Source: Bacilli bacterium
GTDB taxonomy: Bacteria; Bacillota_I; Bacilli_A; ML615J-28; CAG-313
Direction: 5' to 3'
Length of the DNA stretch: 64,000 nt
NCBI GenBank assembly: GCA_017398545.1
Contig: JAFQFT010000013.1
Span: forward strand, 5,572 to 69,571
The position numbers were made by a program, and so were the translations under genes. The notes beneath the pieces are model-generated. The model was not told the origin of the DNA. It ran no database searches and saw only the letters and a list, made by a program, of their open reading frames with translations. Below are positions 1 to 50,937 of this stretch, piece by piece; the first letter of the stretch is position 1, and each line of letters starts with the position of its first letter.

Positions 1-610
1 TCAACTCTTTGTAATCAACATACAAACTTAAAGCATTTTCTTTTGTTAAACCACAATAATCAATTCCCCATAATTCGAATGCTACAGAAGGATCAAATAA
101 TTCATCCATTAACTTAATAAAGTTAGATGTATCCTTATAATTTACTTTAGTTATGCAATGTTTAATAACAATTTTAATACCATAATAATGAATGTTAAGT
201 AAACCATTAATTGATTTATTAAAACTACCTTTACTAAGGTTCTGTGATTCATGTGTTTCTGCACCGCTGCTATGAATAGTTGTTATTATTTGAAAACGAT
301 TTTTGTCAATATGTTTAGAAAGCTCATATGCAAATTTTATGTCGTAAAGTTTCTCAGCATTTGTTAAAATCGTTGTATAAATATTATTTTCTTTAAAGTA
401 ATCCAAAATATCAAAGATTTCATCGTGTAATAGAGGTTCTCCACCACTTAATGTAACATAAATACGCTCATTTTTATCAATGAAAGGTTTAATTTTGGTT
501 TTTATATCATCTAAAGATAACTTTTGTCCTTTAAATGAATTTTTACCACATGGACAACCTAAACACTTTTGATTACAACCATAAATTATTGCAAAATATA
601 AATTTACCAT
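1..610 (-). CDS. Radical SAM protein, partial (3' end lies beyond position 1; first 203 aa visible)
   Basis: I translated the minus strand from the ATG at 610: MVNLYFAIIYGCNQKCLGCPCGK...LSGGEPLLHDE.... It has a CX3CX2C motif (CNQKCLGC) near the N-terminus and a GGEPLL SAM-binding-type motif. The frame stays open to position 1. The ATG sits inside the stop region of the upstream gene (AAATGGTAA). It is absent from the supplied ORF track because it runs off the window. Confidence 0.75.
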   Translation of the reverse strand, partial: MVNLYFAIIYGCNQKCLGCPCGKNSFKGQKLSLDDIKTKIKPFIDKNERIYVTLSGGEPLLHDEIFDILDYFKENNIYTTILTNAEKLYDIKFAYELSKHIDKNRFQIITTIHSSGAETHESQNLSKGSFNKSINGLLNIHYYGIKIVIKHCITKVNYKDTSNFIKLMDELFDPSVAFELWGIDYCGLTKENALSLYVDYKEL

Positions 611-1158
611 TTTATTGCCTCCAAATACACTTGATTATTTATAAAAGACTTTTTGGTCAACGAATAAATGTATAAATCATAATACTCATCGTTATGTTTT
701 CGATAATCTTTCAATGTAGCTTCCTTTATAACACCTGGAAATTGCATTAAAGAAATTGAATTTTGATTATACGAATAAACCTCGAAAAATATTTTATTTA
801 GACTTAGTTTTTCGAATAAATGATTTAGATATAGAACTGCAGCTTCAACAGAGTATATTTTATTACGATATTCTTCACAAATGTAAATAGTTACAAAAGC
901 GTGAGAATCAATATTTCGAATATTATATGCAAATATAAATCCCATTCTCTTGTTTGAATTATTTTCATAGATTACATAAAACGAGCGATAATGACTTTTA
1001 AGCATTTCATTCATTTCTGTTTGAAACTCAAAATATGTTTGTTTACTGTTTTTGTTACTCCATAAATATAAATCATCTAAACAAAATTTTTCATAAATAA
1101 AATGATAGTCATCTCTATCTTTAATATAATTTAAATATAAATGTTTTCCTAAAATCAT
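604..1158 (-). CDS. GNAT-like (RimJ/RimL-type) acyl/acetyltransferase
   Basis: 184-aa ORF with SD AGAGGA 5 nt before the ATG. The C-terminal half (LNKIFFEVYSYNQNSISLMQFPGVIKEATLKDY) resembles the RimJ/RimL GNAT pattern. There is a 1-nt gap to the upstream gene and an overlap with the downstream rSAM gene. Confidence 0.5.
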   Translation of the reverse strand: MILGKHLYLNYIKDRDDYHFIYEKFCLDDLYLWSNKNSKQTYFEFQTEMNEMLKSHYRSFYVIYENNSNKRMGFIFAYNIRNIDSHAFVTIYICEEYRNKIYSVEAAVLYLNHLFEKLSLNKIFFEVYSYNQNSISLMQFPGVIKEATLKDYRKHNDEYYDLYIYSLTKKSFINNQVYLEAIKW

Positions 1159-1159
1159 A

Positions 1160-2512
1160 TTAGTCCTCTATTTTGATTTCACCTAATGATAATATTTCAA
1201 TAACTTTTTTATTAGTTAAAGCATATTCTATTAATTTAGGGTAAAGATATTCATTAATGCTACATTGCGTTTCGTCAATTTCTGTAAATGATTTTTTATA
1301 CGATATTATTGAAGCAGTGCATCCACCACGGCAATAAACATACCAAGGACATTTATCACATTTGAAATCATTTTTTTTCAAAAAGAAAGGATTGCTTTGA
1401 ATTGATTTCTCTAAAATATCAGTCAAATCACCATCTTGAATATTACCTATTTTAACAATTTCATTACCTACTAATTCACAAGGATAGATATTACCATCTC
1501 TGGAAAAAGTAATAAATTTATATCCACCTAAACATCCATTTGAATGACATAATTCACTATTCCATCCCTTAAATAAATTTATGATTCGATCATAAATATT
1601 CATATCTGTAATTGTATAACCTTCTTTATAGAGTTTTAATAAAATATTTATTAATCGTTCATAAAACATTGGAATATCTTTTTCTGTTAATACAGATTCC
1701 ATTGGAAAAACATCTGAATTAGGATGGACGAAATTTAACTTTATTTTTTTAATTTTTAAATCTTTAGCAAACGAAATAATGCTATCTTCTAAATAATCTA
1801 AGGACATCTTTGTAACTACAGAAATTGTTTGGACATTATATCCATTATACTTTTGAAGATTTTTTATCCCCTCAATAACTTTAAAATATGAGTCTTTCCC
1901 ATCAAAATATTTACGATGAATATTATGGATTTTTTCGTTACCATCAATACTTACTGCAACAGAAATTTTTCTATCATGCAACTCTTTAGCTATTTCCTGA
2001 GTAATTAAAGTTCCGTTAGTTTGAATAACAATCTCAGCCTTTATATTATTTTCTTTAAAGAAATCATCCATTTTTAGTATTTCTTTATATGCTAAAAAGG
2101 GCTCTCCACCCCATGGTTGAATCGTGATAGGTCTGTTGCCATTACTTTTTACATAATTTTTTATATAATCTAAAATTGCAAATAATTCATTTTCTTTAAT
2201 AACTGAACCACGTGAAATAAAATCTCTTAAACAATAATAGCATCCTAAATTGCAACAAGTAGAAAAATCAATCATAAAAAAAGAAATTTTTGGTTTTAAA
2301 GATCGAATTTCAAAGCGATCAGTTTTATAAAAAGAATTAAGTAAAAGTTTATATTTTAATTCCTCACAACATTTATCTTCAATTAAATCATCATACAATA
2401 CTTTTTCTAATATTAAACCATTTCCATTTTTTGATAATATAAATACTTTATCACATGATTTTTGTGAATAAATTATATTAAATTTTTCTATTTTATTATT
2501 CAAGAAAACCAC
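1160..2512 (-). CDS. Radical SAM peptide-modifying enzyme with C-terminal SPASM domain
   Basis: CX3CX2C motif (CNLGCYYC), a GGEPF motif, and the SPASM signature CX2CX5CX3C (CDKCPWYVYCRGGC) plus upstream Cys residues (CHSNGC...YPCE). The start is uncertain: GTG at 2512 or TTG at 2503, the latter with better SD spacing (GAAGGTGG-5nt-TTG). Confidence 0.85.
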   Translation of the reverse strand: MVFLNNKIEKFNIIYSQKSCDKVFILSKNGNGLILEKVLYDDLIEDKCCEELKYKLLLNSFYKTDRFEIRSLKPKISFFMIDFSTCCNLGCYYCLRDFISRGSVIKENELFAILDYIKNYVKSNGNRPITIQPWGGEPFLAYKEILKMDDFFKENNIKAEIVIQTNGTLITQEIAKELHDRKISVAVSIDGNEKIHNIHRKYFDGKDSYFKVIEGIKNLQKYNGYNVQTISVVTKMSLDYLEDSIISFAKDLKIKKIKLNFVHPNSDVFPMESVLTEKDIPMFYERLINILLKLYKEGYTITDMNIYDRIINLFKGWNSELCHSNGCLGGYKFITFSRDGNIYPCELVGNEIVKIGNIQDGDLTDILEKSIQSNPFFLKKNDFKCDKCPWYVYCRGGCTASIISYKKSFTEIDETQCSINEYLYPKLIEYALTNKKVIEILSLGEIKIED

Positions 2513-2744
2513 CTTCTTCTAATTTGTTATAAACATCATGTTCAGTTAATTTTTTTATTGTATCAATAGGTGACCCAATTAATAAAGAATTTAATAATAA
2601 ATTCAATTTATATCTATTTCCATTGATAATAAGTTCATTATTGTTTCTACAACATTTCAAAAATAAACTATCATTTTCTAAAGCATAAATCGTTGATGAT
2701 GATAATTTAATAGTATTTAAGTTATTTTTTTTTAGTACAACCAT
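2496..2744 (-). CDS. Small PqqD-like / RRE-type peptide-binding protein (tentative)
   Basis: 82 aa, sitting immediately upstream of the rSAM-SPASM gene and overlapping it by 17 nt. Its size and position are typical of PqqD-family chaperones. Sequence similarity is judged only loosely by eye. Confidence 0.4.
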   Translation of the reverse strand: MVVLKKNNLNTIKLSSSTIYALENDSLFLKCCRNNNELIINGNRYKLNLLLNSLLIGSPIDTIKKLTEHDVYNKLEEGGFLE

Positions 2745-2748
2745 AAGA

Positions 2749-3696
2749 TTACCTATTATCTTTCCATTTTCCTAGTTCGGGATAAAAACATTCCAAACCA
2801 TTCTCGCAATTTAATTTTTTTATTAGTTTAAATTTATTTAAATTAGCAATAAATTCATTTTTCGAATGGCTTTTCGCTGCTAATTCTCTTATTTCAAAAA
2901 TAGTTTTACAAACATATAATATAAAATCGACATCAAATTCTCTTCCCGTAATTTTAATAGAATTAACACCGATTTCTAAAAAATCATAAATAGCACAAAT
3001 TCCACATCCATAATTTAATAAAGAATTAGAATATACATCATGATTTTCATTATACAAATCAACATCCATATTTATATTCCATTTATTACTTAGAGAAAAC
3101 TTACACATTCCCCCGTTTTCAGTATGAAGGCAAAAGCAATTTCCATTTGAAAATCTGCAACCACTTAAAAAAACAAAACACTCAATTTCAATATTTAATT
3201 CAGTTCTAAATTTTTTAATTTCTTCATAAGAAACGTCTCTTGATAAAATTAATCTATCGACTTTATATCTTTTTATTAACGCTTTCACAGCAGAAATATT
3301 GTATAAAGCAAATATGGTTGATAAATAAATTTTAAGATTAAATTTATTAGCAATTTTTAAGATATTCAAATCACTAACAATAAATCCATCTCCACCCTCT
3401 CTTTCAAATTGTGACATTATTTTCTCAATACTTTGCAATTGTTCGTCACTATAAGAATGAGCATTACAAACCAAAAAGACTTCTTTTTTATTATTTTTTA
3501 TAATGTCAATTACTCTTTTTACATTATCAATATTCTTAAATGATGCTTTAGAACTAAATCCTCTCGAATGATAAGATAAAAAATTATCTTTTTGATCTTT
3601 CCAATCATCATTATTAAAGCTTAAATAAAATTCATCAGCATATTTAACTAATTCTTCTATTTTACTATCTTCATTTATTGGACAAAATATTTTCAT
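2749..3696 (-). CDS. Peptidase-U32-family protein (possible Fe-S enzyme rather than a protease)
   Basis: 315 aa. The Cys-rich segment IECFVFLSGCRFSNGNCFCLHTENGGMCKF resembles the U32 family signature as I remember it (E-x-F-x2-G-[SA]-x-C-x4-G-x-C). The N-terminal half is TIM-barrel-like (DGFIVSDLNILKIA). Confidence 0.6.
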   Translation of the reverse strand: MKIFCPINEDSKIEELVKYADEFYLSFNNDDWKDQKDNFLSYHSRGFSSKASFKNIDNVKRVIDIIKNNKKEVFLVCNAHSYSDEQLQSIEKIMSQFEREGGDGFIVSDLNILKIANKFNLKIYLSTIFALYNISAVKALIKRYKVDRLILSRDVSYEEIKKFRTELNIEIECFVFLSGCRFSNGNCFCLHTENGGMCKFSLSNKWNINMDVDLYNENHDVYSNSLLNYGCGICAIYDFLEIGVNSIKITGREFDVDFILYVCKTIFEIRELAAKSHSKNEFIANLNKFKLIKKLNCENGLECFYPELGKWKDNR

Positions 3697-3704
3697 AATA
3701 ACAT

Positions 3705-6035
3705 TTAACCCTCAATATACTTTAATATAATTTCAAAATCATCATTTTTAAGTAAATCAATTACCTTTTTGTCAAGTTTTCCTTGGTAATATAATGCATT
3801 CATATATTTATAAACTTTAATTTGATTATAATTTGTAGTTGAGCAATATTTTAAACATTCAAAGGAACAATTAACATTTTTAAACTTAGAAGCACACTTT
3901 TTATTAATTCCTGAAAATTCACAAATATTTCCACATGCCTCTAAAATATAAGGATAATTAATATATATTTTATTTAAACTTTGTGGTAATATAAAGTGTT
4001 CTGTTATGTGAGGTTCTAAAGTAACACTACGTATATTATGTTCTTCATAATACTTAAGATTTTCAGAACTAAAAACCCCAATACCTTCATTTGTTAGAAA
4101 AATATTTTTTGTTCTAAAATCACGGATTCTTTTGTCAAACAATCTTCCCAAAATAATATTTACTTTTTTAGAATAAAGTTCCATTATTCCATAATCATTA
4201 ACAATTAGATAATCAATTACTTTACGCTCAAGTAATTGATCAATAACTTGTACAAACTTTTGAAAATATTCTTCTCTAACATTTGGCACAATAAAATACG
4301 TTAAAAGATTTTTTTCTTTCGCCGATATATATTTTTTTATAAGTTTTTCTGCATTTATAGCATCAATAAATCTAGAACAAGTGCTTGAACCATAAATAAC
4401 ACCTTTAATATATGAATTATGTGGATTAATTAACTCAATACATAACTTCGAAATATTATCTAATGACATATCAATTACTGTAAATCGATCACTCAAATCA
4501 ACAATAATACCTTTTTTAAACATCAAAGATGTTTCCTTAGTCAAATAATTATTAACTAATTCCACAATATGCTGCACTTTATCCATTTTTTCAAAATCTT
4601 TATCGCTAAATGTAATATTATACTTTTTTTCTATTTCAACAATAATTAAAAAGAAATCCACTGATGTAATATTTAAATCATATTTCAGGTCGGAGTTATA
4701 AAGTACTTCAACATTAATATATTTTTCAATTAAAGTTTTAATTTCAGTAAATAGTTCATTTTTTACATCATTTCTTTGAACCTTGTGTGCATCTGAATAA
4801 ATTAAATCACCATAGATAATTTGAGTTATAAGATTAAAATTAGGAATCATACTTAATTGTTGAACATTTAATCTGCTTATCGAATCAATTTTTAAAAAGA
4901 GCTTATCGTTTTTTAAAAATAATAATGATCCTTTAACTCCATCAAACTCATTTACAACATTTTCAATTTGTTCAGGAAAAACTTTTAACCCATTTGGTAA
5001 AACAATTAATGTATCACTTCGTCCAAGTAACAATATTTTTTTATCATTTGTTAACATTCCTAAATCGTTAGATGAAAATAAAGGTTGAGTTAAAAAGTTA
5101 GGATAGTATCCTTTCATAACATTTTTACCTTCAACCGTAATTTCATTTTCTCTATTAATTGTTATATTTACGCCTTCGATTAACGAAATAACATTTAATT
5201 TACTAACATTATCAATTAAAGTTATCCCTATGCAGCCTGCTGTTTCTGTAGAACCATAACCGTTAAATAGTTGGAGATTTTTCTTTAAAACTTTATTCGC
5301 TAGTCGTTTAGAAATTTGAGCTCCTCCTACAAGAATTGTTTTCAAATTTAAGTTTTCAATACCATATTTTTCTAAAAAAATAAATAACTTTTCTAATAAT
5401 AACGGTGTTAAATTAATACATGTGGGATTGGCAATAGTAAAAGAATCAAACATTCTATTTACATCATTATTTACATATACTTTTGAACCACCAAAAATTG
5501 GTAAAAAATAATCAGCTATTAAGCCGAATACATGATGAATTGGAAGAATGCTTAAATATGAACATTTTTGATTACTTTTTAAAATTTTCCAACCCCCATT
5601 AACTGCAGCATACAAATTATTATTTGAAAGCATAACACCTTTTTTTTCTAAAGTTGTACCGGAAGTAAAAATAATTGTTGAAACGTTATCTTCATCTAAT
5701 TCTTTTTCTAACTTAAATTCAGTTTTTTCAAAACATTCTTGTAAAATGGAATTAAACTTTATATCATTAATTATTTCAACACAATTAATTAAATTATTTT
5801 GATCAGCAAAAACTGCTATATTATCAGTAAATATAATCGATAAGTATGCAGCAAAAAAATTTATCTTATCCTTAATTATTATGTTAAAATAACATCTATT
5901 ATATTTAGAAAAGTAATTGGATATTTTACTTACTAATGAAAAGAATTCACCATATGAATAATTAATATTTTCAGAACTAAAAAGAATTAGATTTTTATTA
6001 TTGTTAAAAGAATCAATTAAAGCATTCTTTAACAT
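3705..6035 (-). CDS. Tri-domain fusion: AMP-forming adenylation enzyme, acyl/peptidyl carrier domain and U32-like domain
   Basis: Adenylation motifs are TSGTTLEKKG (A3), NGYGSTETAG (A5) and SNDLG...GRSDTLIVLPNGLKVFPEQIE (A7/A8). A carrier-like helix with a Ser follows (LNITSVDFFLIIVEIEKKYNITF). The C-terminal ~270 aa are U32-like (IDYLIVNDYGIMELY...; Cys-rich EACGNICEF...CSFECLKYC). The ATG overlaps the precursor stop (TAATG). Confidence 0.7.
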   Translation of the reverse strand: MLKNALIDSFNNNKNLILFSSENINYSYGEFFSLVSKISNYFSKYNRCYFNIIIKDKINFFAAYLSIIFTDNIAVFADQNNLINCVEIINDIKFNSILQECFEKTEFKLEKELDEDNVSTIIFTSGTTLEKKGVMLSNNNLYAAVNGGWKILKSNQKCSYLSILPIHHVFGLIADYFLPIFGGSKVYVNNDVNRMFDSFTIANPTCINLTPLLLEKLFIFLEKYGIENLNLKTILVGGAQISKRLANKVLKKNLQLFNGYGSTETAGCIGITLIDNVSKLNVISLIEGVNITINRENEITVEGKNVMKGYYPNFLTQPLFSSNDLGMLTNDKKILLLGRSDTLIVLPNGLKVFPEQIENVVNEFDGVKGSLLFLKNDKLFLKIDSISRLNVQQLSMIPNFNLITQIIYGDLIYSDAHKVQRNDVKNELFTEIKTLIEKYINVEVLYNSDLKYDLNITSVDFFLIIVEIEKKYNITFSDKDFEKMDKVQHIVELVNNYLTKETSLMFKKGIIVDLSDRFTVIDMSLDNISKLCIELINPHNSYIKGVIYGSSTCSRFIDAINAEKLIKKYISAKEKNLLTYFIVPNVREEYFQKFVQVIDQLLERKVIDYLIVNDYGIMELYSKKVNIILGRLFDKRIRDFRTKNIFLTNEGIGVFSSENLKYYEEHNIRSVTLEPHITEHFILPQSLNKIYINYPYILEACGNICEFSGINKKCASKFKNVNCSFECLKYCSTTNYNQIKVYKYMNALYYQGKLDKKVIDLLKNDDFEIILKYIEG

Positions 6036-6325
6036 TATTTGCTACTTCCACCTGCACTCCAACTTGTACTATTAGACCAGTATGTCCCACCTGCACTCCA
6101 TTTAGTACTATTAGACCAGTATGTCCCACCTGCACTCCATTTAGTACTATTTGACCAATATGTTCCACCTGCACTCCACGGAGTACTATTTGACCAATAT
6201 GTTCCACCTGCGCTCCATCTTGTGCTATTTGACCAATATGAACTTTGATCATTATTATTTGAAATAGATAAATCGTTACCAAAACATAATACACAATTTA
6301 ATTTTTTAGAATAAACCTTAATCAT
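6035..6325 (-). CDS. Candidate RiPP precursor peptide: ~28-aa leader plus five 13-aa repeats (T/S)YWSNST-x-WSAGG
   Basis: Strong SD (AAGGAGTG, 7 nt before the ATG) and a consensus-like promoter upstream. It is the first gene of the rSAM operon. Sequence: MIKVYSKKLNCVLCFGNDLSISNNNDQS-SYWSNSTRWSAGG-TYWSNSTPWSAGG-TYWSNSTKWSAGG-TYWSNSTKWSAGG-TYWSNSTSWSAGG-SSK. Nucleotide differences between repeats are almost all synonymous in this frame. Confidence 0.75.
   Translation of the reverse strand: MIKVYSKKLNCVLCFGNDLSISNNNDQSSYWSNSTRWSAGGTYWSNSTPWSAGGTYWSNSTKWSAGGTYWSNSTKWSAGGTYWSNSTSWSAGGSSK
6048..6242 (-). repeat. Five tandem 39-bp repeats (unit starts 6048, 6087, 6126, 6165, 6204) encoding the peptide core units
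   Basis: Direct reading of the plus strand gives ccacctgc(a/g)ctcca-nnn-(a/t)gt(a/g)ctat(t/a)(a/t)gacca(g/a)tatg... repeated five times with an exact 39-bp period. Confidence 0.95.
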
Positions 6326-6351
6326 AATTTCACTCCTTTTATATTTTTATT

Positions 6352-6380
6352 ATTTTATCACAATGAAAATAATTAGTCAA
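6352..6380 (-). promoter_or_regulatory. Sigma-A-type promoter of the peptide operon
   Basis: The minus strand reads TTGACT (6380-6375), a 17-nt spacer, then TAAAAT (6357-6352). It lies ~27 nt upstream of the precursor ATG region, ahead of SD AAGGAGTG. Confidence 0.6.
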
Positions 6381-6485
6381 GAAAAATTGTAAAATTTTGT
6401 GGTATTTATGTAAGATATTTTTACAATATTTTATTATTTTTCTCTTTATGATTAAAAAAGTCAAAAATTATTTATATATAAAAAA

Positions 6486-6515
6486 ACCTCTCTTATAGGA
6501 TACTATTAGAGGGGT
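6486..6515. terminator. Bidirectional rho-independent terminator
   Basis: 13-bp stem (one mismatch, one G-U pair) with loop GATA, flanked by an A-run (6481-6486) and a T-run (6515-6520). It lies just downstream of the acyltransferase gene on the minus strand. Confidence 0.7.
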
Positions 6516-6597
6516 TTTTTCTTAAGATATTTTATTAAATCATAAATTAATACAAATAAAAAAATTTAATAAATAATATAATGTTTAATCATAGTTT

Positions 6598-7515
6598 TTA
6601 GTAATTAATAGTAGTTAACTTTTCTTGTTTTTCTATATCGTTTTTAACTTGTTTAAAAATAAATCTCAATAACAATGTCAACAACGATAAACCTAATATA
6701 ATTACAAAAATTACATTTCGATTCGATAAATTAAAAAATTTAATAAATAATCTTGGAACAAGTTGATATGCATAAAGTCCAAAACTAAGTGAACCCAAAA
6801 AATTAAATATCGAAAAATTAAATTTCAATAAAAATGTGAAATAAATTAATGATGGATATAAAATGATGAAAGCAAGCTGTATTAATAGTTTATCACCTGA
6901 ATACATCAAAAATAAAATTGTTAAAGAAAATAAAACAAAAACTAATACCCAATTTAAAATTTTATTAATTTTTAGTTTTGGTATATAACCTATTAATACT
7001 CCTAATGGTAACGCTGCTGCACCTCTAACAAACCCAACATGTTCACACCCAAGATTTCTTAAAACAGTAAATATTAATACCCAACATATTAAAAACATAA
7101 TAAAGTGTTTTTCTCTTTTAAAAAATTTTTTTAAAATAATAAGAATTAAACATGTATAAATCATTTGTTTGACATACCATAAGTAACTCCATAAATTAAG
7201 AGTAAGTTCGTCATTCAAAATAAGACTAATTATACAATAAATTATATTAAAAGATATTCCTACAAATAAAGGTAGGCCTAATTTTAATACTTTCTTTTTA
7301 AAGAATAAAATAATTGCTTCTCTAAAATTCATATCATGTACTTTTTCTAAAAATCCGATAAATAAATAACCAGTTAAAATAAAGAAAAATTCAACACAGA
7401 TAAAACCAGATGAAAAGTAAGGACCACCATATATAAACATTGAATGACTTTTTACAACGATTAAAGATAATATAAATCTATATAATTCAATTAAACTATT
7501 TTTCTTCATACTCAA
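6598..7515 (-). CDS. Integral membrane acyltransferase (acyltransferase_3 / OafA-like family)
   Basis: 305 aa and polytopic. The N-terminal LIELYRFILSLIVVKSHS resembles the conserved start of acyltransferase-3 proteins (R...H motif). Confidence 0.5.
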   Translation of the reverse strand: MSMKKNSLIELYRFILSLIVVKSHSMFIYGGPYFSSGFICVEFFFILTGYLFIGFLEKVHDMNFREAIILFFKKKVLKLGLPLFVGISFNIIYCIISLILNDELTLNLWSYLWYVKQMIYTCLILIILKKFFKREKHFIMFLICWVLIFTVLRNLGCEHVGFVRGAAALPLGVLIGYIPKLKINKILNWVLVFVLFSLTILFLMYSGDKLLIQLAFIILYPSLIYFTFLLKFNFSIFNFLGSLSFGLYAYQLVPRLFIKFFNLSNRNVIFVIILGLSLLTLLLRFIFKQVKNDIEKQEKLTTINY

Positions 7516-7521
7516 ATTTTA

Positions 7522-10500
7522 TTAACGCATACCTTCTATTAACATTAGAATTTCTTCACGTGTTATATATCCTTTACCTACGACAATTGATAAATATCGG
7601 CCATTTAATGCAATAAATTCTTCATATGAAACATAGTCTTGCCATTCTTCATATGTATATAATCCATATTGTGCTATATCTGATTCCATTTTCTCTTTAT
7701 CATATTTATAATCATCGCCAAATTCAAAATATGTTAAAAAGCCAGGAATATCTTCAATTGTTAATGTTAAAAAGCCTTCTACAATAACATTATCGTTGCA
7801 AGCACTTCTTAGAGAATAACACGAACTCCATTTGTATTCTGCAATTCCTGAAACCAATTCTACAGTTTCTATTGTTCCTTCTTCTCCTACCACAGCAAAA
7901 TGATGTCCTAAATATTCAACGTAATTTTCATGATTGATAAAAACATATTTATTAAGCGTGGCATCAAAGAAACCATGTTCAGTTACAACATTTAAAGACT
8001 TTCCATTAGAAAATTCAAGCGTAATTACGTTATATAAACCTTCTCCGTGATTCCAAAATAATGAAATAGGCATTGCTTCTATAGTTCCTGTAAATGCATT
8101 CCACGAAAGAACTAAATCACCAGGTTTCAAACTATCAAGTCTTGCATAAGATCCGTCATCAAGAGCAACAAGTGTATCACCAGTAAAACAGCCATTAGTA
8201 GACCAAGTAACAGTATAAGTTATAGTTTGTTTAGTTATATTATCAGTTATTTTTAACCAAGCATTTCCTGTTTTATCATCTTCCTCTTTATAAACTCTTA
8301 AAAACTCACCGTCATATGTCGCTTTTGCTCCTGAATCTGAACCACATTCATATTTATACGAACCAGAACCACCAGATACAGTTACCATTCTTTTTTCTAC
8401 TTCACTTATACTTGAGAAATCATCATCTTCGTAGTTAGTTGTACTATAACCTAAAGGGTTATACCAAGCACTATTAATCACTTGATCAAATTCAGTAACT
8501 TTTGCTACATAAATTTTACTTTCACTTAGTAATTGATCACCACAAGACCAACCTTTAAACGTATAATCATTATTTGGATCATTACTACTCTTATAAGTTG
8601 CTGAATATTCATAAGTTATTATGCAATCATTACAACTTATCGAATTTGCTTTAACAAGTTGAATTGTTGCATTTCCATAAACGCTTCCTGAATAGATAGT
8701 CATTTTACCAGAACCTATAAAATTAAGCTTAGATTCAGCTCCAGATAAATTTATAATATTACCACAGGTAACGGATGGAGAAATTGAACTTTCACCTAAA
8801 ACATTAATAGTTAAATTTATTCCATTAGTATTATATAAAGATATTGCTTCACTTTCATTAGTTATAAAATTAAAGTTATCAAACGTTAATGTAAGATTTT
8901 GTGAACTTGTATAACTACATAAATACATTCTAAAATTTATAAATGTTCTATCTTTATTACCGATAAATATGACTTCTTCTGAATACCCAGCTACTATATC
9001 TATATTGTTATACCTATTGTTTACTACACTTCTATTAGTGTGTTTTGTTAAATCTATTTCTGATTCATGACGCCAATCTATTATTGTTTTTTTATAAAGT
9101 GGATTCCAAGGAGTGCTATCAATAGTATTATATATCATATACGAATCAGTCTTAAGAGTGTTTTCAACAATTGTCCCAGTTGTGACATATTGACTAATTT
9201 CACGTGTGTTTATTTCCCAAATCGCATATAAAGTAATATTCTCTTTAGAAGTTAATCCAGATATATCATCAACATTTGTAAAACAAATTTCACTATCTGG
9301 GTTTAAAGACCAACCTTTAAAGTTCATTCCTTCAATGAAAAATGCATTATTAGTTAAAGTATATGACTTAAAATAATCACAATCTTGCATAGGAGAAATA
9401 TTTCCACCCTTTGAGCCTATATAATTAATTGTATAAGCAAAACTTGGATAGTTTGCTTCAAAATAGATATCATATAAACTTTTAACGTCAAATGAAATAT
9501 TTTCAATTACTTTTTCAAACTTTATATCAAAATACATAAATGAAACTTTAACCTCTGTTACACAACTTTTATTATTACAATTTAAATTAAAAAGTACTGT
9601 ATTATTTCCATTAGCATCAACTAAATTATGAACATCACCATATTCACTATTAATGCTAAATACTAGTGAAAAATCGTGTAAATTATATAAGCTATTTAAC
9701 GTTAAATATTCATCGTTTTCAGCTATCAATTTCCAAATTTCATCAATAGTATAAATTTTATTATTTTCAATGTAATCTAATTTAAAACTAATCTCATCAA
9801 TTTGATTCATTATTAATTGCATTGAATTATTTTTACTATCAATATCATTAGTAAATTTTGTATTCTCACTACAAATTATATCTATATTCTCACAAAAATC
9901 TATTATAAATTTCATATTATCATATGAATAAAAATTTTTAGAATTTTGTAAATATAGAGTCTTTTTCACTGTTGATGTGTTGAAACCTAATTCAGTTAAA
10001 AAGTTTTCGCTCAATAAAGAACCTTGTAAATTTACATTTTGTAACATTAGTTTATTTAATCCTATACAAAGAGAATCTTTTCGTAAATCCATATTTCTAA
10101 GATTCAAATTTTTTAAGCTATTTAATGAAGAAACATTTAAAGAACTTAAGTTAACTTTATCTAATTTTAACGTACTTAAATTGTTTAAACTACTTAATAC
10201 AATATTTTTTACTGTACTATTAATAACTTCTATACTATCAACATTCGAATTCTTGACTAAAATTGAATCAGTATCAATAGAGTTTAGTTTTATATTTTCT
10301 AGTTTATCACCTGAAGTATTACAATCAATAATAGATAAATCTTTAAAATTATATTTAGTGATTTCAAGCCAACCAATTGTACTATTTTCTAATTTTATGG
10401 TATTAAAATCATTAAAATTAATAAGTGACACATCTTTCAATGAAGTAGTTCCTTTAAAAGACATTGAAGTTATCAAATTATTAATATTTTCGTATAATTG

Positions 10501-13500
10501 ACTTTCAAATGCCCCTGTTCCAACTTTAAGTGTCGTTAAAGCTTTTGTTCCATCTAATGTTAATGTGTCCATAATCGGATAATTTACATATAATTCTTTC
10601 ATTGATTCAAGATTTTTGATAGCATCATTATTTTCTTTATTTAAAACGTTTAGTTTTACAATTCTTAATGAATTTTCACCACTAATATTAAGTTTATAAT
10701 TCAAAGCATTAACTGTTAAATTTACTAATTTCTTATTACTAGTTAAACTTGTATTTGATTCTCCATCTATAATTAAACTTTCAATTGAAGTGTTGCTTAA
10801 ACTTAAATTCTTAATTTGTGAATTAATAATTAATTTTTTGCAACCTAAAGTATTATTTAACACAAGCTCTTCCATATCATCTGAAATATTAAGTTCATTA
10901 AATAAAGTAATACCATCCAAAGTCATTTTCTTAATATTTTCTAATGAAATATCAACATTAATATTATTACCACTACCATATATTTTTAGTTCATCAATTG
11001 ATTCCACACCAAAAGTTGATAGATTTTCTAAGCACGATAAATTTTTAATTATTAAAGACTTTAGTGTTGTAGTGCCAACAAGATTAATTACACTTATACT
11101 CTTATTCCCACCTTCTTCAAGATATGCCTCAATTCTTACATTTTCTAAAGGATTGTTACATAATTGAATATCTTTTACTGTAGAAGGTAATGGTTTATAT
11201 ACTCCATTTTCATCATAATAAGAAATAAAATTATTAATATTATTATTATTTAATATTATTGTTTCTAATCCATTCATCTTTTGAACTAGCATTCCAATTA
11301 TTGCATCATATAATGAATATTTAGTATTAGTTTCTTCATCTAAAAATTTACTATTTACATCTAATGTAATACCAATATTTTCTAAATTCAATTTTTTAAT
11401 TATTGAAGCATTAACACTTAATTTGTCTATAAATTTGTATAAAATTTCTTCACTACTTATTGTACTTTGTTCTTTTTTATGAACCTCAAATTTTAGTTCA
11501 CTGATTTCACAATTATTTAAAGTAATAGGATTAAATAGAATTTCTTCATTTATTGTAATCGTAACTTTTATATTTCCATCATTTATAACATGCACATTTT
11601 CAAATGTTATAGTTGTAAGTTTTTCTAATGCTGGAATTTCTAAATCACTAAATTCGATATTTTTCAATATTAAAGTTTTTAAAGATTGTAATCCATTTAA
11701 TTTTAGTTCTCTTAAACCTCCATTTTCTCCTATAATTTCAACAGAGGCTAAGTATATTGAATCTGTAAGGTTAATAGTTTCAAGATTAAATAAATTAGTA
11801 TTGTTAAATTTAATTTCTGAAAATTTATTTCCACTAATATCTAACGTAGTAATACTTTTATTTAACTTTAAAATATTTTCTAAGAATTCGATGTGTTCTG
11901 ATTCATTATATAGATTATTTAAACCATTGAATGGTAGTGATAACGTTTTATTTATTTTAGTATTAGAATAATTAAAGTTTTCTTTAGTTTTAAATATAGT
12001 AGCAACAGGGTTATATTTATCATCAGTTTCAAGTTTTTCAATAATTAAATCATCAATATTACAATTTGTTAAATTAAATACTTTTAAGGCAGGACATGAA
12101 GATAAATTTAACTTACCTATCATACATTCATCAATTAATAAACTATTTGCATCATTATCAAATGAATTTTTAATTGTTAAATTATTAAAATCACATTTTT
12201 TAATACTTATATTATTAATTAATACATTATCAATACTTAATAAATTATTTAAGAATGAAGTATTTATTATTTCAAGATTTTTAATATTAGGAAAATTATT
12301 TAAATCAAGTGAAACATTAACTGCATTTTTCAATAATAATGTATTAACATTTGAATACTTAGAACCAAGTATCGATTTAATTGCATTACTACTAACATTA
12401 TTTTCATTAAGAAGTTCAATTTTAATTGTTTCTAATAAATCGCAATTGTCTAAGATCATTTCTTGTAAATTTAAATATTTGTCAGTAAAAATAAATTCAA
12501 CAATAGTATTTCCAGTTAAATCAATAGTCTTTTCAATATTAAATTTGTCTAATACTTTTGTCTCAGAAATATCACAGTTTTTTAATGTTAGATAATCTAC
12601 ATCAATATTATTAATTCTATCATACCAAGAGTTTTGATTAATACCATTAAAACTTAAAGTCATAACTTTGCTTGGAAAAACAAAACTATTTAAATCTATC
12701 GATTTTAATGTTGATGAAGAAATTGATAACTCTTTAAACTCTTCTTTTTGACTATAATCTCCAATTATAGTATCAATATTAGTATCATTTAAAGAAAGCT
12801 TATTTAATTTTTCAAATGAACTTAAATCTAAAATATTATCTACAAATGTAGTATTTGAAGCTTGAAGCGATTTTAATGTAGGTCTTGCATTTGATTCATC
12901 ATTCATAAGATCAAAATTTGTTAAATCATTAATAATTAATTCATTAATTCTAAATATATCTGTTGATAATTTTGTAACATCAGTACCTGAAATATTTAAA
13001 CTGTTAATATTAATGATTTGAAAACTATATTCTATATCATTAATCATTCCTTTAAATTCACTATTAATAATTTCATCACTTAAATTTGTGTTGGTAAAGT
13101 TAAATCTTTCAGTTGAAGTTCCATTGTAATATATTTTTAGAGATTGAAAATCAACACCTACTGCATTTATATCAATATTACTTCCTCTAATTAGTTCAAA
13201 TATTTTTGTATGATTTGTAACATTGATTATACAATTTCCTACATCATATATTACAAGAGAATTACTTGGAATAATAACTTCAGTTTGATTTTTATCATTA
13301 TAAAATGCTCTACTTGAACTATTATCGAAATTCACAGAATTTATAATCGAACTGCTATATACTCCACCATCAATTATAATGTTACTAGAATCAATATCCA
13401 AATAACTTAAATTAAATTTACTATTTTCAGCATTATCAAATACTGAAATATTTAAGTCAAGATTCCCTACGTTAATATTCTCTCTATATGAAGAAGTTAT

Positions 13501-15594
13501 ATTGAATGTAACATTGTTATAAATATTTAAATTAACATTTTGTAAACGATTAACTGAAATATCTACATTTGCAATTTCAGAATTTGAAATATTAATACCC
13601 AACCCATCAGATTGTCCTAAAAAGTTATTGTCAATATAAATACCATTTGGTAAATCTTTAACATCTTTAAAAATAGAATTTTTAACAACTTTAAAATTAT
13701 CAGCAACTATATTTTTCAATTCAATATTATTCCCTGAATCTAATGATGAACAATTTGTAATTATTGCTTTTCCTATTTCTAATCCTTCTAAACTAATATG
13801 TTGTAAAGATTCACATTTATCTATATTTAACGTTGGTAAAAATACAATTGTTTCTTGAACATTCTTTATAGATAATCCAGTTAAATTTGCAACATTTATA
13901 ATTTCTAAGCTTTCTAGTTGACCAATTTCATCAAAAATAATTTCATTATTTCCATCAATAGTTAATTCCTCTAATATTATGTTATTTGCATAAGAAGCAC
14001 TCGCAGAAATTACCTTGTTATTCGTATTACTTAATTCAGCTTTTTTAATTTTTAATTCTTTAATAGTTGTACTAGCATCATTAGGTCTAGTTAAAATACC
14101 ATTAAATAGAGAAACAACAGCTTCATTATCTGATAATTTAGAACGAATATTTTCTATAGTAATAGACTCGTAAGATTTATTAGCTAAACGTATTGTATCA
14201 AAATCATTTAATAACATATCGCCTTTTAAAGTAATATGCTCTAACAAGCTTAGATTTTCAAGATTTAATTCACTTCCTCTAAAACTAGTAATTGAAAGTT
14301 TTTTTAGTTTTGTTAAATCATCACTAAATTGATTATTTTCATCAAGGTAACTTTTACTATTTACATTGTCAAATTCAATTTCTTCAATTAAAGACTCATT
14401 ATCTGATGTAATTTTTAAAGACTCTAGATAGCTTAAATTTCTACATATTAGTTTAGTAAAACTATTATTATTTAAGGTAATTGTTTTAATAGAATTAAAC
14501 TCATTACCTACATTAATAGCATCATTAATTTCTAAGCATTCCACTTTTTTAATGTTTGAAAGTATAAGAGTTTTTAATCCTTCTAAGTTTTCTATATTAA
14601 TTTTATTTTCACTATTATTAGTAAAACTAATATTATTTAAATTTAATACAGAAAGATTAGCAGAAGCATTATTTATGAATGATGAAAATTCTTTAGCTGA
14701 TTTAAAGTTTCCACTTAAAAATAGTTCTTCTAACCCCTTCATGTTATTAAGATTTAATTCTTGAATTAAACTATTACCATTAGTAGCATTTATAGTTAAT
14801 TTTTTTAAGTTAGGAAGATAATTAAAGTCTGTATAACTATTAAATGTTTCCTTTTGAAGATTTAATTCCTTAATACTTGCTAAATCATTTCTGTATAACT
14901 GACCATCACTTAATTTTTTTCTTATTTCTGCTTCTATTTCAGAATCATTACACTTAACTGTAAATGCTTGGTTTTCAAGGAAAACATCAGCGTTTTGAGT
15001 TGACTTAATCGTGATATTTCCCTTACCAATACCAGTAGTTAAATATAACCCTTTATTTTCACCATCATTTATTAGTTCAAAACATTTAAAATCAGAAATT
15101 AATTCAAAATCATCAGTTTCTGACCACTGATCAGGTTCAGCATCAATTTCAAATTTATAAAATTGACCTAATTTTAGATTTTGTAAATCTTCAGGATTAG
15201 TAATTTTATTAATACTAATAATTCCAGTAGAAACTTTAAATTCAATAGTTATACTTTTTTTAGAATTATTAAAAGTACCTTCCTTTAATTGAATAATTGC
15301 TTTTGACGTTCCCTTACCAATAGCTGTAAAATAACCTGAATCATATTTAATACATGTGTCATTTTCTAACTTTACAATTACACTTTCTTCAATAATTTGT
15401 TGAGTATCTTTATTATTAAAAAATTTAACAGACTTTACATTAATTAAACTTTCTAAAGAAACACTATTACCTACATATAAAGTTTGTGTTTCTGTTATCG
15501 GTTCTATTGTGGTTGAACTTAAACCAAAGTATAATCCACAAAGGCCTCCTATTAAGAGCGCAAATACTATTAACGCAATTATTAATTTACGCAT
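7522..15594 (-). CDS. Giant (2690 aa) surface protein: N-terminal anchor/signal, Big_2-like domains, long leucine-rich-repeat arrays, Listeria-Bacteroides-type repeats and a C-terminal Hint domain
   Basis: The N-terminus MRKLIIALIVFALLIGGLCGLYFG is hydrophobic. There are many LxxLxLxxN LRR units (e.g. LPNLKKLTINA, LEELFLSGN, LKTLILSNI). FKGWSLNP...ITLYAIWE is a Flg_new-like repeat. The C-terminus has CFTGDTLV...VVTEHGFF. Confidence 0.85.
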   Translation of the reverse strand: MRKLIIALIVFALLIGGLCGLYFGLSSTTIEPITETQTLYVGNSVSLESLINVKSVKFFNNKDTQQIIEESVIVKLENDTCIKYDSGYFTAIGKGTSKAIIQLKEGTFNNSKKSITIEFKVSTGIISINKITNPEDLQNLKLGQFYKFEIDAEPDQWSETDDFELISDFKCFELINDGENKGLYLTTGIGKGNITIKSTQNADVFLENQAFTVKCNDSEIEAEIRKKLSDGQLYRNDLASIKELNLQKETFNSYTDFNYLPNLKKLTINATNGNSLIQELNLNNMKGLEELFLSGNFKSAKEFSSFINNASANLSVLNLNNISFTNNSENKINIENLEGLKTLILSNIKKVECLEINDAINVGNEFNSIKTITLNNNSFTKLICRNLSYLESLKITSDNESLIEEIEFDNVNSKSYLDENNQFSDDLTKLKKLSITSFRGSELNLENLSLLEHITLKGDMLLNDFDTIRLANKSYESITIENIRSKLSDNEAVVSLFNGILTRPNDASTTIKELKIKKAELSNTNNKVISASASYANNIILEELTIDGNNEIIFDEIGQLESLEIINVANLTGLSIKNVQETIVFLPTLNIDKCESLQHISLEGLEIGKAIITNCSSLDSGNNIELKNIVADNFKVVKNSIFKDVKDLPNGIYIDNNFLGQSDGLGINISNSEIANVDISVNRLQNVNLNIYNNVTFNITSSYRENINVGNLDLNISVFDNAENSKFNLSYLDIDSSNIIIDGGVYSSSIINSVNFDNSSSRAFYNDKNQTEVIIPSNSLVIYDVGNCIINVTNHTKIFELIRGSNIDINAVGVDFQSLKIYYNGTSTERFNFTNTNLSDEIINSEFKGMINDIEYSFQIININSLNISGTDVTKLSTDIFRINELIINDLTNFDLMNDESNARPTLKSLQASNTTFVDNILDLSSFEKLNKLSLNDTNIDTIIGDYSQKEEFKELSISSSTLKSIDLNSFVFPSKVMTLSFNGINQNSWYDRINNIDVDYLTLKNCDISETKVLDKFNIEKTIDLTGNTIVEFIFTDKYLNLQEMILDNCDLLETIKIELLNENNVSSNAIKSILGSKYSNVNTLLLKNAVNVSLDLNNFPNIKNLEIINTSFLNNLLSIDNVLINNISIKKCDFNNLTIKNSFDNDANSLLIDECMIGKLNLSSCPALKVFNLTNCNIDDLIIEKLETDDKYNPVATIFKTKENFNYSNTKINKTLSLPFNGLNNLYNESEHIEFLENILKLNKSITTLDISGNKFSEIKFNNTNLFNLETINLTDSIYLASVEIIGENGGLRELKLNGLQSLKTLILKNIEFSDLEIPALEKLTTITFENVHVINDGNIKVTITINEEILFNPITLNNCEISELKFEVHKKEQSTISSEEILYKFIDKLSVNASIIKKLNLENIGITLDVNSKFLDEETNTKYSLYDAIIGMLVQKMNGLETIILNNNNINNFISYYDENGVYKPLPSTVKDIQLCNNPLENVRIEAYLEEGGNKSISVINLVGTTTLKSLIIKNLSCLENLSTFGVESIDELKIYGSGNNINVDISLENIKKMTLDGITLFNELNISDDMEELVLNNTLGCKKLIINSQIKNLSLSNTSIESLIIDGESNTSLTSNKKLVNLTVNALNYKLNISGENSLRIVKLNVLNKENNDAIKNLESMKELYVNYPIMDTLTLDGTKALTTLKVGTGAFESQLYENINNLITSMSFKGTTSLKDVSLINFNDFNTIKLENSTIGWLEITKYNFKDLSIIDCNTSGDKLENIKLNSIDTDSILVKNSNVDSIEVINSTVKNIVLSSLNNLSTLKLDKVNLSSLNVSSLNSLKNLNLRNMDLRKDSLCIGLNKLMLQNVNLQGSLLSENFLTELGFNTSTVKKTLYLQNSKNFYSYDNMKFIIDFCENIDIICSENTKFTNDIDSKNNSMQLIMNQIDEISFKLDYIENNKIYTIDEIWKLIAENDEYLTLNSLYNLHDFSLVFSINSEYGDVHNLVDANGNNTVLFNLNCNNKSCVTEVKVSFMYFDIKFEKVIENISFDVKSLYDIYFEANYPSFAYTINYIGSKGGNISPMQDCDYFKSYTLTNNAFFIEGMNFKGWSLNPDSEICFTNVDDISGLTSKENITLYAIWEINTREISQYVTTGTIVENTLKTDSYMIYNTIDSTPWNPLYKKTIIDWRHESEIDLTKHTNRSVVNNRYNNIDIVAGYSEEVIFIGNKDRTFINFRMYLCSYTSSQNLTLTFDNFNFITNESEAISLYNTNGINLTINVLGESSISPSVTCGNIINLSGAESKLNFIGSGKMTIYSGSVYGNATIQLVKANSISCNDCIITYEYSATYKSSNDPNNDYTFKGWSCGDQLLSESKIYVAKVTEFDQVINSAWYNPLGYSTTNYEDDDFSSISEVEKRMVTVSGGSGSYKYECGSDSGAKATYDGEFLRVYKEEDDKTGNAWLKITDNITKQTITYTVTWSTNGCFTGDTLVALDDGSYARLDSLKPGDLVLSWNAFTGTIEAMPISLFWNHGEGLYNVITLEFSNGKSLNVVTEHGFFDATLNKYVFINHENYVEYLGHHFAVVGEEGTIETVELVSGIAEYKWSSCYSLRSACNDNVIVEGFLTLTIEDIPGFLTYFEFGDDYKYDKEKMESDIAQYGLYTYEEWQDYVSYEEFIALNGRYLSIVVGKGYITREEILMLIEGMR
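7768..8190 (-). other. Hint (Hedgehog/intein-like) autoprocessing domain within the 2690-aa protein
   Basis: Block A is NG-CFTGDTLVALDDG, with the Cys codon TGT at 8190-8188. Block B is the TxxH motif LNVVTEHGFFD. A C-terminal block SACNDNVIVEGFL is followed by an 81-aa acidic tail (7525-7767). Confidence 0.7.
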
Positions 15595-50923: not shown

Positions 50924-50937
50924 AAACTTCACCTACC

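Follow-up and report, generated by a model that had tools for sequence, protein, structure and literature searches.

An adenylation-carrier-UbiV-like fusion protein and its U32 partner in a radical-SAM peptide operon: a possible module for hydroxylation and acylation of ribosomal peptides

Introduction

A stretch of 64,000 nucleotides from a Bacilli bacterium (contig JAFQFT010000013.1 of assembly GCA_017398545.1), referred to here as the window, carries an operon that begins with a small, repetitive precursor peptide. The second gene of this operon encodes a 776-aa protein (6035..3705, minus strand) in which an adenylation domain, a carrier domain and a predicted Fe-S barrel follow one another in a single chain, and the third encodes a 315-aa protein of the U32 family (3696..2749, minus strand). 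The question raised by this arrangement is what an enzyme that would activate a carboxylic acid is doing when joined to a relative of the U32 proteins beside a ribosomal peptide. A preliminary description of the locus had placed both open reading frames (ORFs) correctly and had put them in an operon for a ribosomally synthesised, post-translationally modified peptide (RiPP) that also contains a GNAT acyltransferase, a setting which is borne out here.

U32 proteins have been associated both with a dependence on Fe-S clusters and with prephenate-dependent, O2-independent hydroxylation of aromatic rings (PMC6747719, PMC10990095). The genes ubiU and ubiV reportedly co-occur in 99% of genomes, mostly as neighbours, and their products form a heterodimer carrying one [4Fe-4S] cluster in each subunit (PMC6747719), for which prephenate is the oxygen donor (PMC10990095). 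GNAT enzymes are known to move acyl groups bound to an acyl carrier protein (ACP), or fatty acyl groups, onto RiPPs in the biosynthesis of goadvionins and selidamides (PMC8784127).

Here we show that the 776-aa protein is a genuine fusion of three functions which are encoded by separate genes in related clusters, and that its C-terminal domain belongs to a separate family that has gone without annotation. Together with the U32 protein, this family makes up a conserved tailoring module of RiPP clusters that contain radical S-adenosylmethionine (SAM) enzymes and Trp/Tyr-rich precursors.

Results

The adenylation and carrier domains of the fusion

The operon is a single, tightly packed unit on the minus strand, within positions 1-6400 of the window, and its genes run in the order precursor, 776-aa fusion, 315-aa U32 protein, 82-aa protein, radical SAM/SPASM enzyme, GNAT and second radical SAM enzyme. 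In the sequence TAATG, the stop codon of the precursor gene shares bases with the start of the gene for the fusion. Residues 1-421 of the fusion (4773..6035, minus strand) constitute an adenylation (ANL) domain, as the preliminary description had it. Pfam AMP-binding (PF00501) matched residues 92-311 (E 4.5e-32), with a score of 111.7 bits where the cut-off is 29.9; the domain falls short of the usual length, and only positions 133-384 of the hidden Markov model (HMM) were covered. The motifs that had been quoted from the protein were all found, namely A3 (TSGTTLEKKG) at residue 124, A5 (YGSTETAG) at 260, the A8 hinge (GRSDTLIV) at 338 and the carrier motif NITSVDFF at 455. In an alignment of 61 sequences the P-loop, YGxTE, the hinge Arg and the A10 residues K418 and R421 occupy invariant or near-invariant columns. 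The fusion was modelled as two separate halves, residues 1-500 and the C-terminal domain. The AlphaFold model of residues 1-500 has a predicted local distance difference test (pLDDT) score of 89, and its best fold matches in Foldseek were MenE, DltA, the adenylation-peptidyl carrier protein (A-PCP) didomain of McyG, EntE-EntB and the adenylation domains of nonribosomal peptide synthetases (E 1e-29 to 1e-25). The closest sequence relatives in NCBIfam and the PDB are MenE enzymes, followed by luciferases and fatty or feruloyl-coenzyme A (CoA) ligases, and the MenE model itself (TIGR01923) gave 150.5 bits, well short of its equivalog cut-off of 330.

The carrier (thiolation) domain occupies residues 422-499 (4539..4772, minus strand). 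Its match to Pfam PP-binding (PF00550, cut-off 20.8) is marginal, the domain scoring 17.3 bits as part of the complete chain and 21.5 bits by itself. The model of this region is a four-helix bundle (helices 422-440, 458-472, 478-483 and 487-499; pLDDT 90-96) in which Ser458, the candidate phosphopantetheine site (codon 4662-4664), stands at the start of helix 2. In alignments Ser458 coincides with Ser36 of E. coli AcpP, with the Ser of the separate ACP in a related cluster, L011, and with those of the carriers P0003 and P0051. The carrier assignment and its candidate Ser were thus upheld in spite of the marginal Pfam match, and the Ser, whose presence in homologues had been named as a check, is retained in the separate ACP of L011 and in the related carriers. 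On these features, the compact adenylate-forming enzyme would activate a carboxylic acid, which the phosphopantetheine arm on Ser458 would hold as a thioester. This step forms part of the overall interpretation discussed below and shares its roughly even chance of being right.

The first two domains therefore resemble MenE, DltA and the A-PCP loading didomains of McyG and EntE-EntB in having an ANL fold, the core motifs and a carrier directly after the adenylation domain. They differ from these in that the adenylation domain is shorter and falls under all equivalog cut-offs; in contrast to the A-PCP didomains, moreover, what is fused at the C-terminus is a TIM barrel with a predicted Fe-S site and not a condensation, reductase or acyltransferase domain.

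The fusion is intact in independent assemblies

Among 5.8 billion proteins the only full-length homologue of the 776-aa protein was P0001 (98% identity), which ENA, JGI and Logan assemblies contain on a total of 16 contigs, together with the operon found in the window. The window allele and the P0001 allele are separated by 31 codon differences (14 synonymous and 17 non-synonymous), with no indel, and the codon for Ser458 is itself one of the synonymous differences. The fusion is thus intact on all 16 contigs as well as in the window, which settles the concern, raised in the preliminary description, that it might be an artefact. No fusion of these three domains had been known to the author of that description, and database searches agree with this: of 1.84 billion representatives, a single cluster at 50% identity has the tri-domain architecture, an AMP-binding domain is joined to none of the 53 related U32 proteins, and no other member of the UbiV-like family (176 clusters) is fused to an adenylation or carrier domain.

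A divergent UbiV-like domain

The remainder of the fusion, residues 500-776 (3705..4538, minus strand), was modelled as an alpha/beta barrel with a pLDDT of 90.8. An exhaustive HMMER search of the 1.84 billion representatives recovered its family as 176 clusters at E up to 1e-3, nearly all of them stand-alone proteins of 260-300 aa. Four Cys residues, C553, C705, C723 and C727 (the last three encoded within 3855-3923), are invariant in 62 sequences, with the spacing C..(151)..C-x17-C-x3-C. Their order is that of UbiV, whose motif CXnCX12CX3C likewise has its first Cys far upstream (PMC6747719), but the spacer has 17 residues as against 12. When the family was compared by hhalign with an alignment of UbiV/UbiU and two RiPP-type U32 proteins, the match reached 85% probability (E 6e-6, 95 columns) and placed C553 on C39 of UbiV. 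The family HMM scored 18.6 bits on a canonical U32 protein, P0322, as compared with a maximum of 9.8 bits in 2000 shuffles, and paired VNDfGmL with VSDLGLI; in BLASTP of the domain against the window's own 315-aa U32 protein the same segment was aligned with an E value of 0.012. The best fold match in the PDB was the U32 peptidase Mk0906 (5d88; template modelling scores 0.43/0.48, E 1.4e-3).

Standard models did not recognise the family. The U32 model PF01136 gave no match at E up to 0.01 among 62 members scanned with Pfam, while E. coli UbiV itself scores 38 bits on it. The UbiV NCBIfam equivalog did not match the domain, one of the 62 members matched the U32/UbiV-type model PRK15447 at E 0.025, and the PDB sequences yielded no match to the domain, whether they were searched with its own sequence or with a profile of the family. 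We conclude that the C-terminal domain is probably a very divergent UbiV-like relative of the U32 proteins, as judged from its sequence and model, rather than a recognisable U32 domain. The earlier view of the C-terminus as U32-like is therefore retained with respect to remote profile, fold and Cys-pattern evidence, and not with respect to membership by any standard HMM.

The species genomes of GTDB yielded no relative when scanned with the domain alone, and a single locus, L009, when scanned with an alignment of six sequences. There, in the metagenome-assembled genome (MAG) of a rabbit-gut Clostridia (4780-5582), a frameshift or a sequencing error divides the UbiV-like gene into two ORFs, of 153 aa and 111 aa.

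A UbiU-type U32 protein as its partner

The 315-aa protein is a true U32 protein, as had been claimed, with 104.4 bits on PF01136 against a cut-off of 22.4 (E 7e-30). The segment SGCRFSNGNCFCLHTENGGMCKF quoted for its Cys cluster begins at residue 178. Of this cluster, whose codons lie within 2995-3159, C180, C187 and C198 (C180-x6-C187-x10-C198) align with the UbiU cluster ligands C169, C176 and C193, and C231 and C234 are candidates for the fourth ligand. Seven Cys residues (C180, C187, C198, C231, C234, C297 and C303; alignment A9) are invariant in the subfamily, and since these are three more than one [4Fe-4S] cluster needs, they hint at a second metal site. NCBIfam models for named U32 enzymes scored far lower than their equivalog cut-offs, with 58 bits against 440 for UbiU (NF047963) and, as second-best match, 47 bits against 534 for TrhP (NF011996; E 1.5e-12). 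By profile search the subfamily has 53 clusters, nearly all metagenomic and single-domain, and relatives are labelled 'putative protease' in their sources. In one member, P0302 (550 aa, 52 member sequences), the C-terminus continues into a further partner, the 296-aa protein that has a gene of its own after the U32 gene in L019 (9001-10852).

A gene matching PF01136 directly follows the UbiV-like gene in all 11 loci compared (the window, L006, L007, L009, L010, L011/12, L013/14, L015, L016/17, L018 and L019). The preliminary description had counted two U32 enzymes; one is a true U32 protein and the other probably a U32 relative, but from this adjacency and the Cys patterns the more fitting view is that the UbiV-like domain and the 315-aa protein belong together in a single UbiU/UbiV-like pair and are not enzymes independent of each other. 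As in UbiU-UbiV (E. coli YhbU/YhbV), the genes are adjacent, a clear U32 protein goes with a shorter, divergent partner, each has four conserved Cys residues with the first Cys of the partner far upstream of C-x(12-17)-C-x3-C, the setting is anaerobic, and aromatic rings are the likely substrates. The fit to an anaerobic lifestyle comes from the related loci, which are from gut metagenomes (rabbit for L009, human for L018). In contrast to UbiU-UbiV, the partner gene comes first in the window, there is no UbiT, the context is that of a RiPP, and the partner forms one chain with an adenylation-carrier didomain; the U32 protein falls far below the cut-off of the UbiU model and its subfamily has the three extra invariant Cys residues, while the partner is missed by the PF01136 model on which UbiV scores. 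The U32 core is also that of TrhP, acting on tRNA U34, and RlhA, acting on 23S rRNA C2501, both needed for O2-independent hydroxylation, and the likeness extends to an Fe-S dependent link to hydroxylation of sp2 ring carbons. TrhP and RlhA differ, however, in being single proteins without a UbiV-like partner and in having RNA substrates, and the window protein stays far below the respective cut-offs.

The pair in related clusters

Adenylation, carrier, GNAT, UbiV-like and U32 functions occur together in two further clusters, L011 and L018. L011, from an ENA assembly with 49% GC, encodes an adenylation protein of 346 aa, an ACP of 79 aa, a GNAT, a phosphopantetheinyl transferase (PPTase; PF01648) and an HxsC-like radical SAM enzyme, together with a precursor homologue, a 581-aa protein in which a domain here called domain X precedes the UbiV-like domain, a U32 protein, a small protein and a radical SAM/SPASM enzyme. 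Pairwise identity between its proteins and those of the window ranges from 23% to 41%. L018, from a human gut metagenome, encodes a Cys/Pro-rich precursor, a radical SAM/SPASM enzyme, a GNAT, an adenylation protein of 432 aa, a carrier of 76 aa (PF00550, E 9e-10), a UbiV-like protein of 284 aa and a U32 protein of 318 aa. The adenylation, carrier, UbiV-like and U32 functions of L018 are separate adjacent genes, and their order is that of the domains in the window. The precursor of L018 (4430-4708) is quite different in having CTPC(S/T)PCYPDSSG repeats, and the cluster lies near relaxase, MobC and recombinase genes and thus may sit on a mobile element.

The nearest relative is L006, a Logan assembly with a domain X-UbiV-like fusion, a U32 protein, a small protein, a radical SAM/SPASM enzyme, a GNAT and a second radical SAM enzyme, on a contig that ends before an adenylation gene could appear. 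In L009, from the rabbit-gut MAG, and in L013/14, L016/17 and L019, from other assemblies, the pair is found with radical SAM genes and small Trp-containing peptides, and no adenylation or carrier gene is present on the available sequence (7.7 kb, 8.5 kb, 20 kb and 19 kb, respectively). The occurrence of the pair without these genes argues against an acyl group as its obligate substrate. In L016 the pair lies beside three dedicated peptidases, of families M3, S9 and S8.

Domain X does not occur in the window. In L011 (5960-7705; P0125), L010 (892-2682; P0122) and L006 (2-1267), these roughly 300 aa precede the UbiV-like domain as a different N-terminal fusion partner. It has an invariant NNGCxxxCxWC...HC motif that resembles the CxxxCxxC of radical SAM enzymes, but neither Pfam nor NCBIfam recognised it, and hhalign did not match it to U32.

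Precursor peptides and candidate acceptors

The precursor gene (6325..6035, minus strand) encodes 96 aa, with a leader starting MIKVYSKKLN, a core of five YWSNSTxWSAGGT units and the end GGSSK. At the DNA level the core is a 39-nt tandem repeat of 4.9 copies with 90% matching. Two ORFs in alternative frames run across the repeats (93 aa, 6013-6294, minus strand; 69 aa, 6039-6248, plus strand) and are by-products of the 39-nt repeat, the 96-aa frame alone being kept in L011 and L010. Orthologous precursors with the same motifs are encoded in L011 (5714-5920), as ..SWSNSTSWSRGSYWSNSTPWSRGSYWSNSTSWSQGGSK with repeats 75-79% identical to those of the window, and in L010 (4615-4902), and related Trp/Tyr-rich precursors are found in L013, L015 and L009. 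The precursors have a common leader motif, (V/A)(F/Y)S(E/K)K(L/M)G.N(I/V), and their cores are rich in YW, WSQG, WNR and WSN.

In the five units, the variable site is occupied by R, P, K, K and S. That three of the five carry Lys or Ser had been noticed correctly, and these had been put forward as possible acceptors. The position is not conserved, however, with S, P, N or R in the orthologous precursors, and the variable residue was thus ruled out as a general acyl acceptor. A C-terminal Lys is instead present in all three WSN-type precursors (window, L011 and L010, with the tails GGSSK, QGGSK and GSSGK), while Trp is the last residue of the Trp-rich precursors in those clusters whose available sequence shows no GNAT. 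The common C-terminal Lys is a better acceptor candidate than the variable site, as is a newly formed hydroxyl.

Other genes of the operon and its surroundings

Downstream of the U32 gene, a small protein of 82 aa (2744..2496, minus strand) lies directly before the radical SAM/SPASM gene and overlaps it. Proteins of 78-99 aa stand at the equivalent position in L006, L009, L011 and L014; a Pfam scan of the 82-aa protein and its counterparts gave no match, and a part as peptide-binding partner of the maturase would be conjecture. The radical SAM/SPASM peptide maturase (450 aa; 2512..1160, minus strand) has the Pfam domains Radical_SAM and SPASM, is 41% identical to its L011 orthologue, and matches the NCBIfam models for anSME, PapB, DynA, HxsB, YhhB and others, all far under their cut-offs. 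The GNAT acyltransferase (184 aa; 1158..604, minus strand) matches Acetyltransf_3 (E 3.5e-8) and has orthologues of 31% identity in L011 and 26% in L018. The second, HxsC-like radical SAM gene (610..2, minus strand) is cut by the window edge, which leaves the first 203 of its 308 aa inside; by tblastn it is 99% identical to L001 15426-16352, and the HxsC model, whose cut-off is 268 bits, gives its L011 orthologue 120 bits.

As in the His-Xaa-Ser system, one SPASM maturase is thus accompanied by one smaller HxsC-like radical SAM enzyme. In contrast to HxsB/HxsC, however, the scores are well under the NCBIfam cut-offs, the maturase falling outside the system with 116 bits against 370 on the HxsB model, and the window precursor contains no HxS repeats. 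With the cyclophane-forming radical SAM/SPASM maturases YhhB, GrrM/OscB, DynA and DarE, the likeness lies in a precursor with short repeated motifs and in cores with aromatic-X-X triplets (WSN, WSA and WNR), which resemble what three-residue cyclophane enzymes act on, but again all NCBIfam scores are well under the cut-offs. Since every cut-off is missed, the proteins of the window are not equivalogs of UbiU, UbiV, TrhP, MenE, HxsB/C or any of the named maturases.

Upstream of the precursor gene there is a promoter-like site (TTGACT, 17 nt, TG-TAAAAT; 6352..6380, minus strand), which is weak evidence for a promoter, such sites being no more numerous in the region than in shuffled sequence. An Acyl_transf_3 membrane acyltransferase of 305 aa (6598-7515, minus strand) lies just upstream of the operon, with a terminator-like hairpin between. 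In a sister strain, L001, an rve-type integrase (8294-9620) lies between the Acyl_transf_3 and precursor genes, and is absent at window positions 6325-6598, and an ISL3 transposase (16552-17841) follows just after the second radical SAM gene; the cluster is thus flanked by mobile elements in some strains. Three very large proteins adjoin the operon on the minus strand (7522-15594, 15609-18734 and 18715-25920): one of 2690 aa with a Listeria-Bacteroides repeat and, near its C-terminus, a Hint module in the style of polymorphic toxins, one of 1041 aa, and one of 2401 aa with BspA-type leucine-rich repeats and Big_2 domains. The window as a whole is chromosomal DNA of about 25% GC, with polA, trmFO, an fpg-coaE fusion ORF, rseP and the very large surface proteins. 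The fpg-coaE ORF (49499-50932, minus strand; 477 aa) joins a formamidopyrimidine-DNA glycosylase (residues 4-279) to a dephospho-CoA kinase (285-466).

Discussion

The domains of the fusion, its presence in independent assemblies, the pairing by gene order and the co-occurrence of both modules are observations, and from them we propose that the operon would carry out O2-independent hydroxylation and carrier-dependent acylation of a radical-SAM peptide, an interpretation that we regard as having about an even chance of being correct. The two radical SAM enzymes would cross-link the core peptide. The UbiV-like domain and the U32 protein would form an enzyme with two [4Fe-4S] clusters, comparable to the UbiU-UbiV heterodimer, and would hydroxylate aromatic side chains without O2, the oxygen donor probably being prephenate as in UbiU/V. 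We settled on aromatic hydroxylation because no other chemistry has been connected with the U32 proteins studied so far, and we favour the Trp or Tyr side chains in the core as targets because, in the clusters without adenylation and carrier genes, the peptide is the only obvious substrate. Meanwhile the adenylation domain would load an acid onto Ser458, and the GNAT may transfer the carrier-bound acyl group to the peptide, as the ACP-dependent GdvG does in goadvionins; the acceptor could be an amine (the common C-terminal Lys or a new N-terminus) or possibly the new hydroxyl. What we infer is that Fe-S clusters are bound, that hydroxylation is the chemistry, what the individual steps act on and which acyl group is moved. 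The mechanism of the preliminary description, which had combined the same two chemistries, is thus plausible, and the gene content of L011 and L018 lends it comparative support. The fusion itself and the gene order of L018 suggest that hydroxylation and acylation may be physically coupled.

By analogy, the system may work like UbiU-UbiV with acylation of the goadvionin or selidamide type, on a radical-SAM RiPP. As in the clusters for goadvionin (GdvG) and selidamides (KspN, PhaN and NpuN), a GNAT is part of a RiPP cluster. The donor for goadvionin is a carrier-bound acyl group, and in the window, L011 and L018 the GNAT gene stands alongside adenylation and carrier genes; the acceptors in selidamides are Lys residues near the ends of the cores, and a C-terminal Lys is common to the three related precursors here. 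In contrast, there is neither polyketide or fatty-acid synthase nor lanthionine machinery, and a single compact adenylation-carrier didomain would supply the acyl group.

Two bolder versions of this proposal can be envisaged, and we consider them doubtful, giving the two jointly perhaps half the credence of the general interpretation. In the first, Trp or Tyr residues of ribosomal peptides would be hydroxylated without O2 by a UbiU/UbiV-like pair that is, in this lineage, physically joined to the machinery for acyl loading, and acylation of the hydroxyl or of a neighbouring amine would follow immediately. In the second, more radical version, the MenE-like domain would charge the carrier with the very compound that donates the oxygen, either prephenate or a related diacid derived from chorismate; once this had given up its oxygen and been decarboxylated, the remaining arylpyruvoyl group would be handed to the peptide by the GNAT.

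A number of points weigh against the proposed hydroxylation and acylation. We know of no U32 enzyme that has a peptide substrate. Residues 500-776 gave no Pfam match at E up to 10 and no NCBIfam match; the fold match to Mk0906 is marginal, with generic TIM barrels close behind; the family HMM did not place E. coli UbiV or UbiU above shuffled decoys; and hhalign against an alignment of RiPP-type U32 proteins alone was insignificant (2.9% probability). The adenylation domain is under every NCBIfam equivalog cut-off, and because all the scores are so far under, no substrate was assigned to it. A tblastn search of the 64-kb window found no homologue of a PPTase that would arm the carrier. The ORF list and Pfam give the operon no other protease or transporter, and a proteolytic role of the U32 pair thus has to be reckoned with. 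Direct hydroxylase activity in vitro has been shown for none of UbiU/V, TrhP and RlhA (PMC10990095).

The alternative that survives best, although we think it unlikely, is that the U32 pair hydroxylates the acyl or aryl group tethered to Ser458, and that the GNAT then transfers the hydroxylated group to the peptide. The fusion of adenylation, carrier and UbiV-like domains in the window and the adjacency of the same functions in L018, in the same order and followed by U32, would fit such a sequence of steps. It would also agree with the small aromatic molecules that are the known substrates of UbiU/V (PMC6747719, PMC10990095) and with MenE, which activates an aromatic acid, as the nearest relative of the adenylation domain. 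However, the pair occurs without an AMP-binding or carrier gene in L009, L013/14, L016/17 and L019, so that a carrier-bound group is not its general substrate, and in L011 and L006 the UbiV-like domain carries a different N-terminal fusion.

Somewhat less probable again is that the U32 pair acts as a peptidase, which would cleave off the leader or divide the core into its five separate repeats. A core built of repeats is suggestive of units being cut out, relatives are named 'putative protease' in their sources, and, as mentioned above, neither protease nor transporter is otherwise encoded in the operon. In contrast, the Cys residues aligned to the Fe-S ligands of UbiU and UbiV are invariant, the studied members cited here (UbiU/V, TrhP and RlhA) are all tied to hydroxylation and not to proteolysis, and in L016 the pair is accompanied by dedicated peptidases, of families M3, S9 and S8.

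Equally improbable, in our estimate, is that the C-terminal domain is an unrelated Cys-rich TIM barrel that has become UbiV-like by convergence and serves as an adaptor, a scaffold or an electron-transfer partner, or has a chemistry of its own. This would account for the lack of any Pfam or NCBIfam match in 62 members, for the failure of the family HMM to find UbiV and UbiU, and for fold matches that are mostly generic TIM barrels. It is at odds, however, with three independent weak signals that fall on the same segment (BLASTP E 0.012, hhalign 85% and HMM 18.6 bits), with a U32 protein as the top fold match, and with a Cys order and a strict adjacency to the U32 gene that mirror ubiV-ubiU. 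Finally, that the 776-aa ORF is an assembly or frameshift artefact, as the separation of its homologous parts in L011 and L018 might suggest, has a negligible probability and was ruled out because the ORF is present on 16 contigs from independent assemblies and samples, because the window holds a distinct allele with 31 codon differences and no indel, and in view of a model that is continuous from the adenylation into the carrier domain.

Within the literature searched, no paper linked U32 proteins to RiPPs, precursor peptides or radical SAM enzymes. New here are a family of UbiV-like proteins that lacks annotation, the employment of a U32 pair in RiPP tailoring and a fusion of three domains that is unique, and this fusion serves as a Rosetta stone between the acylation and U32 modules. 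For the RiPP field the locus adds a recurrent tailoring module, whose UbiV-like partner comprises 176 clusters and has no Pfam model, and a new precursor family with a common leader motif and Trp/Tyr-rich cores; the adenylation, carrier and GNAT functions may further represent a minimal route to acylated ribosomal peptides in gut anaerobes. The U32 family is large and mostly uncharacterised, and a peptide substrate encoded beside the pair would be soluble and genetically defined, and would make U32 chemistry directly testable. If the proposed hydroxylation of the peptide is true, the reach of the U32 Fe-S enzymes, which to date have been connected with the hydroxylation of quinones and RNA only, would extend to ribosomal peptides.

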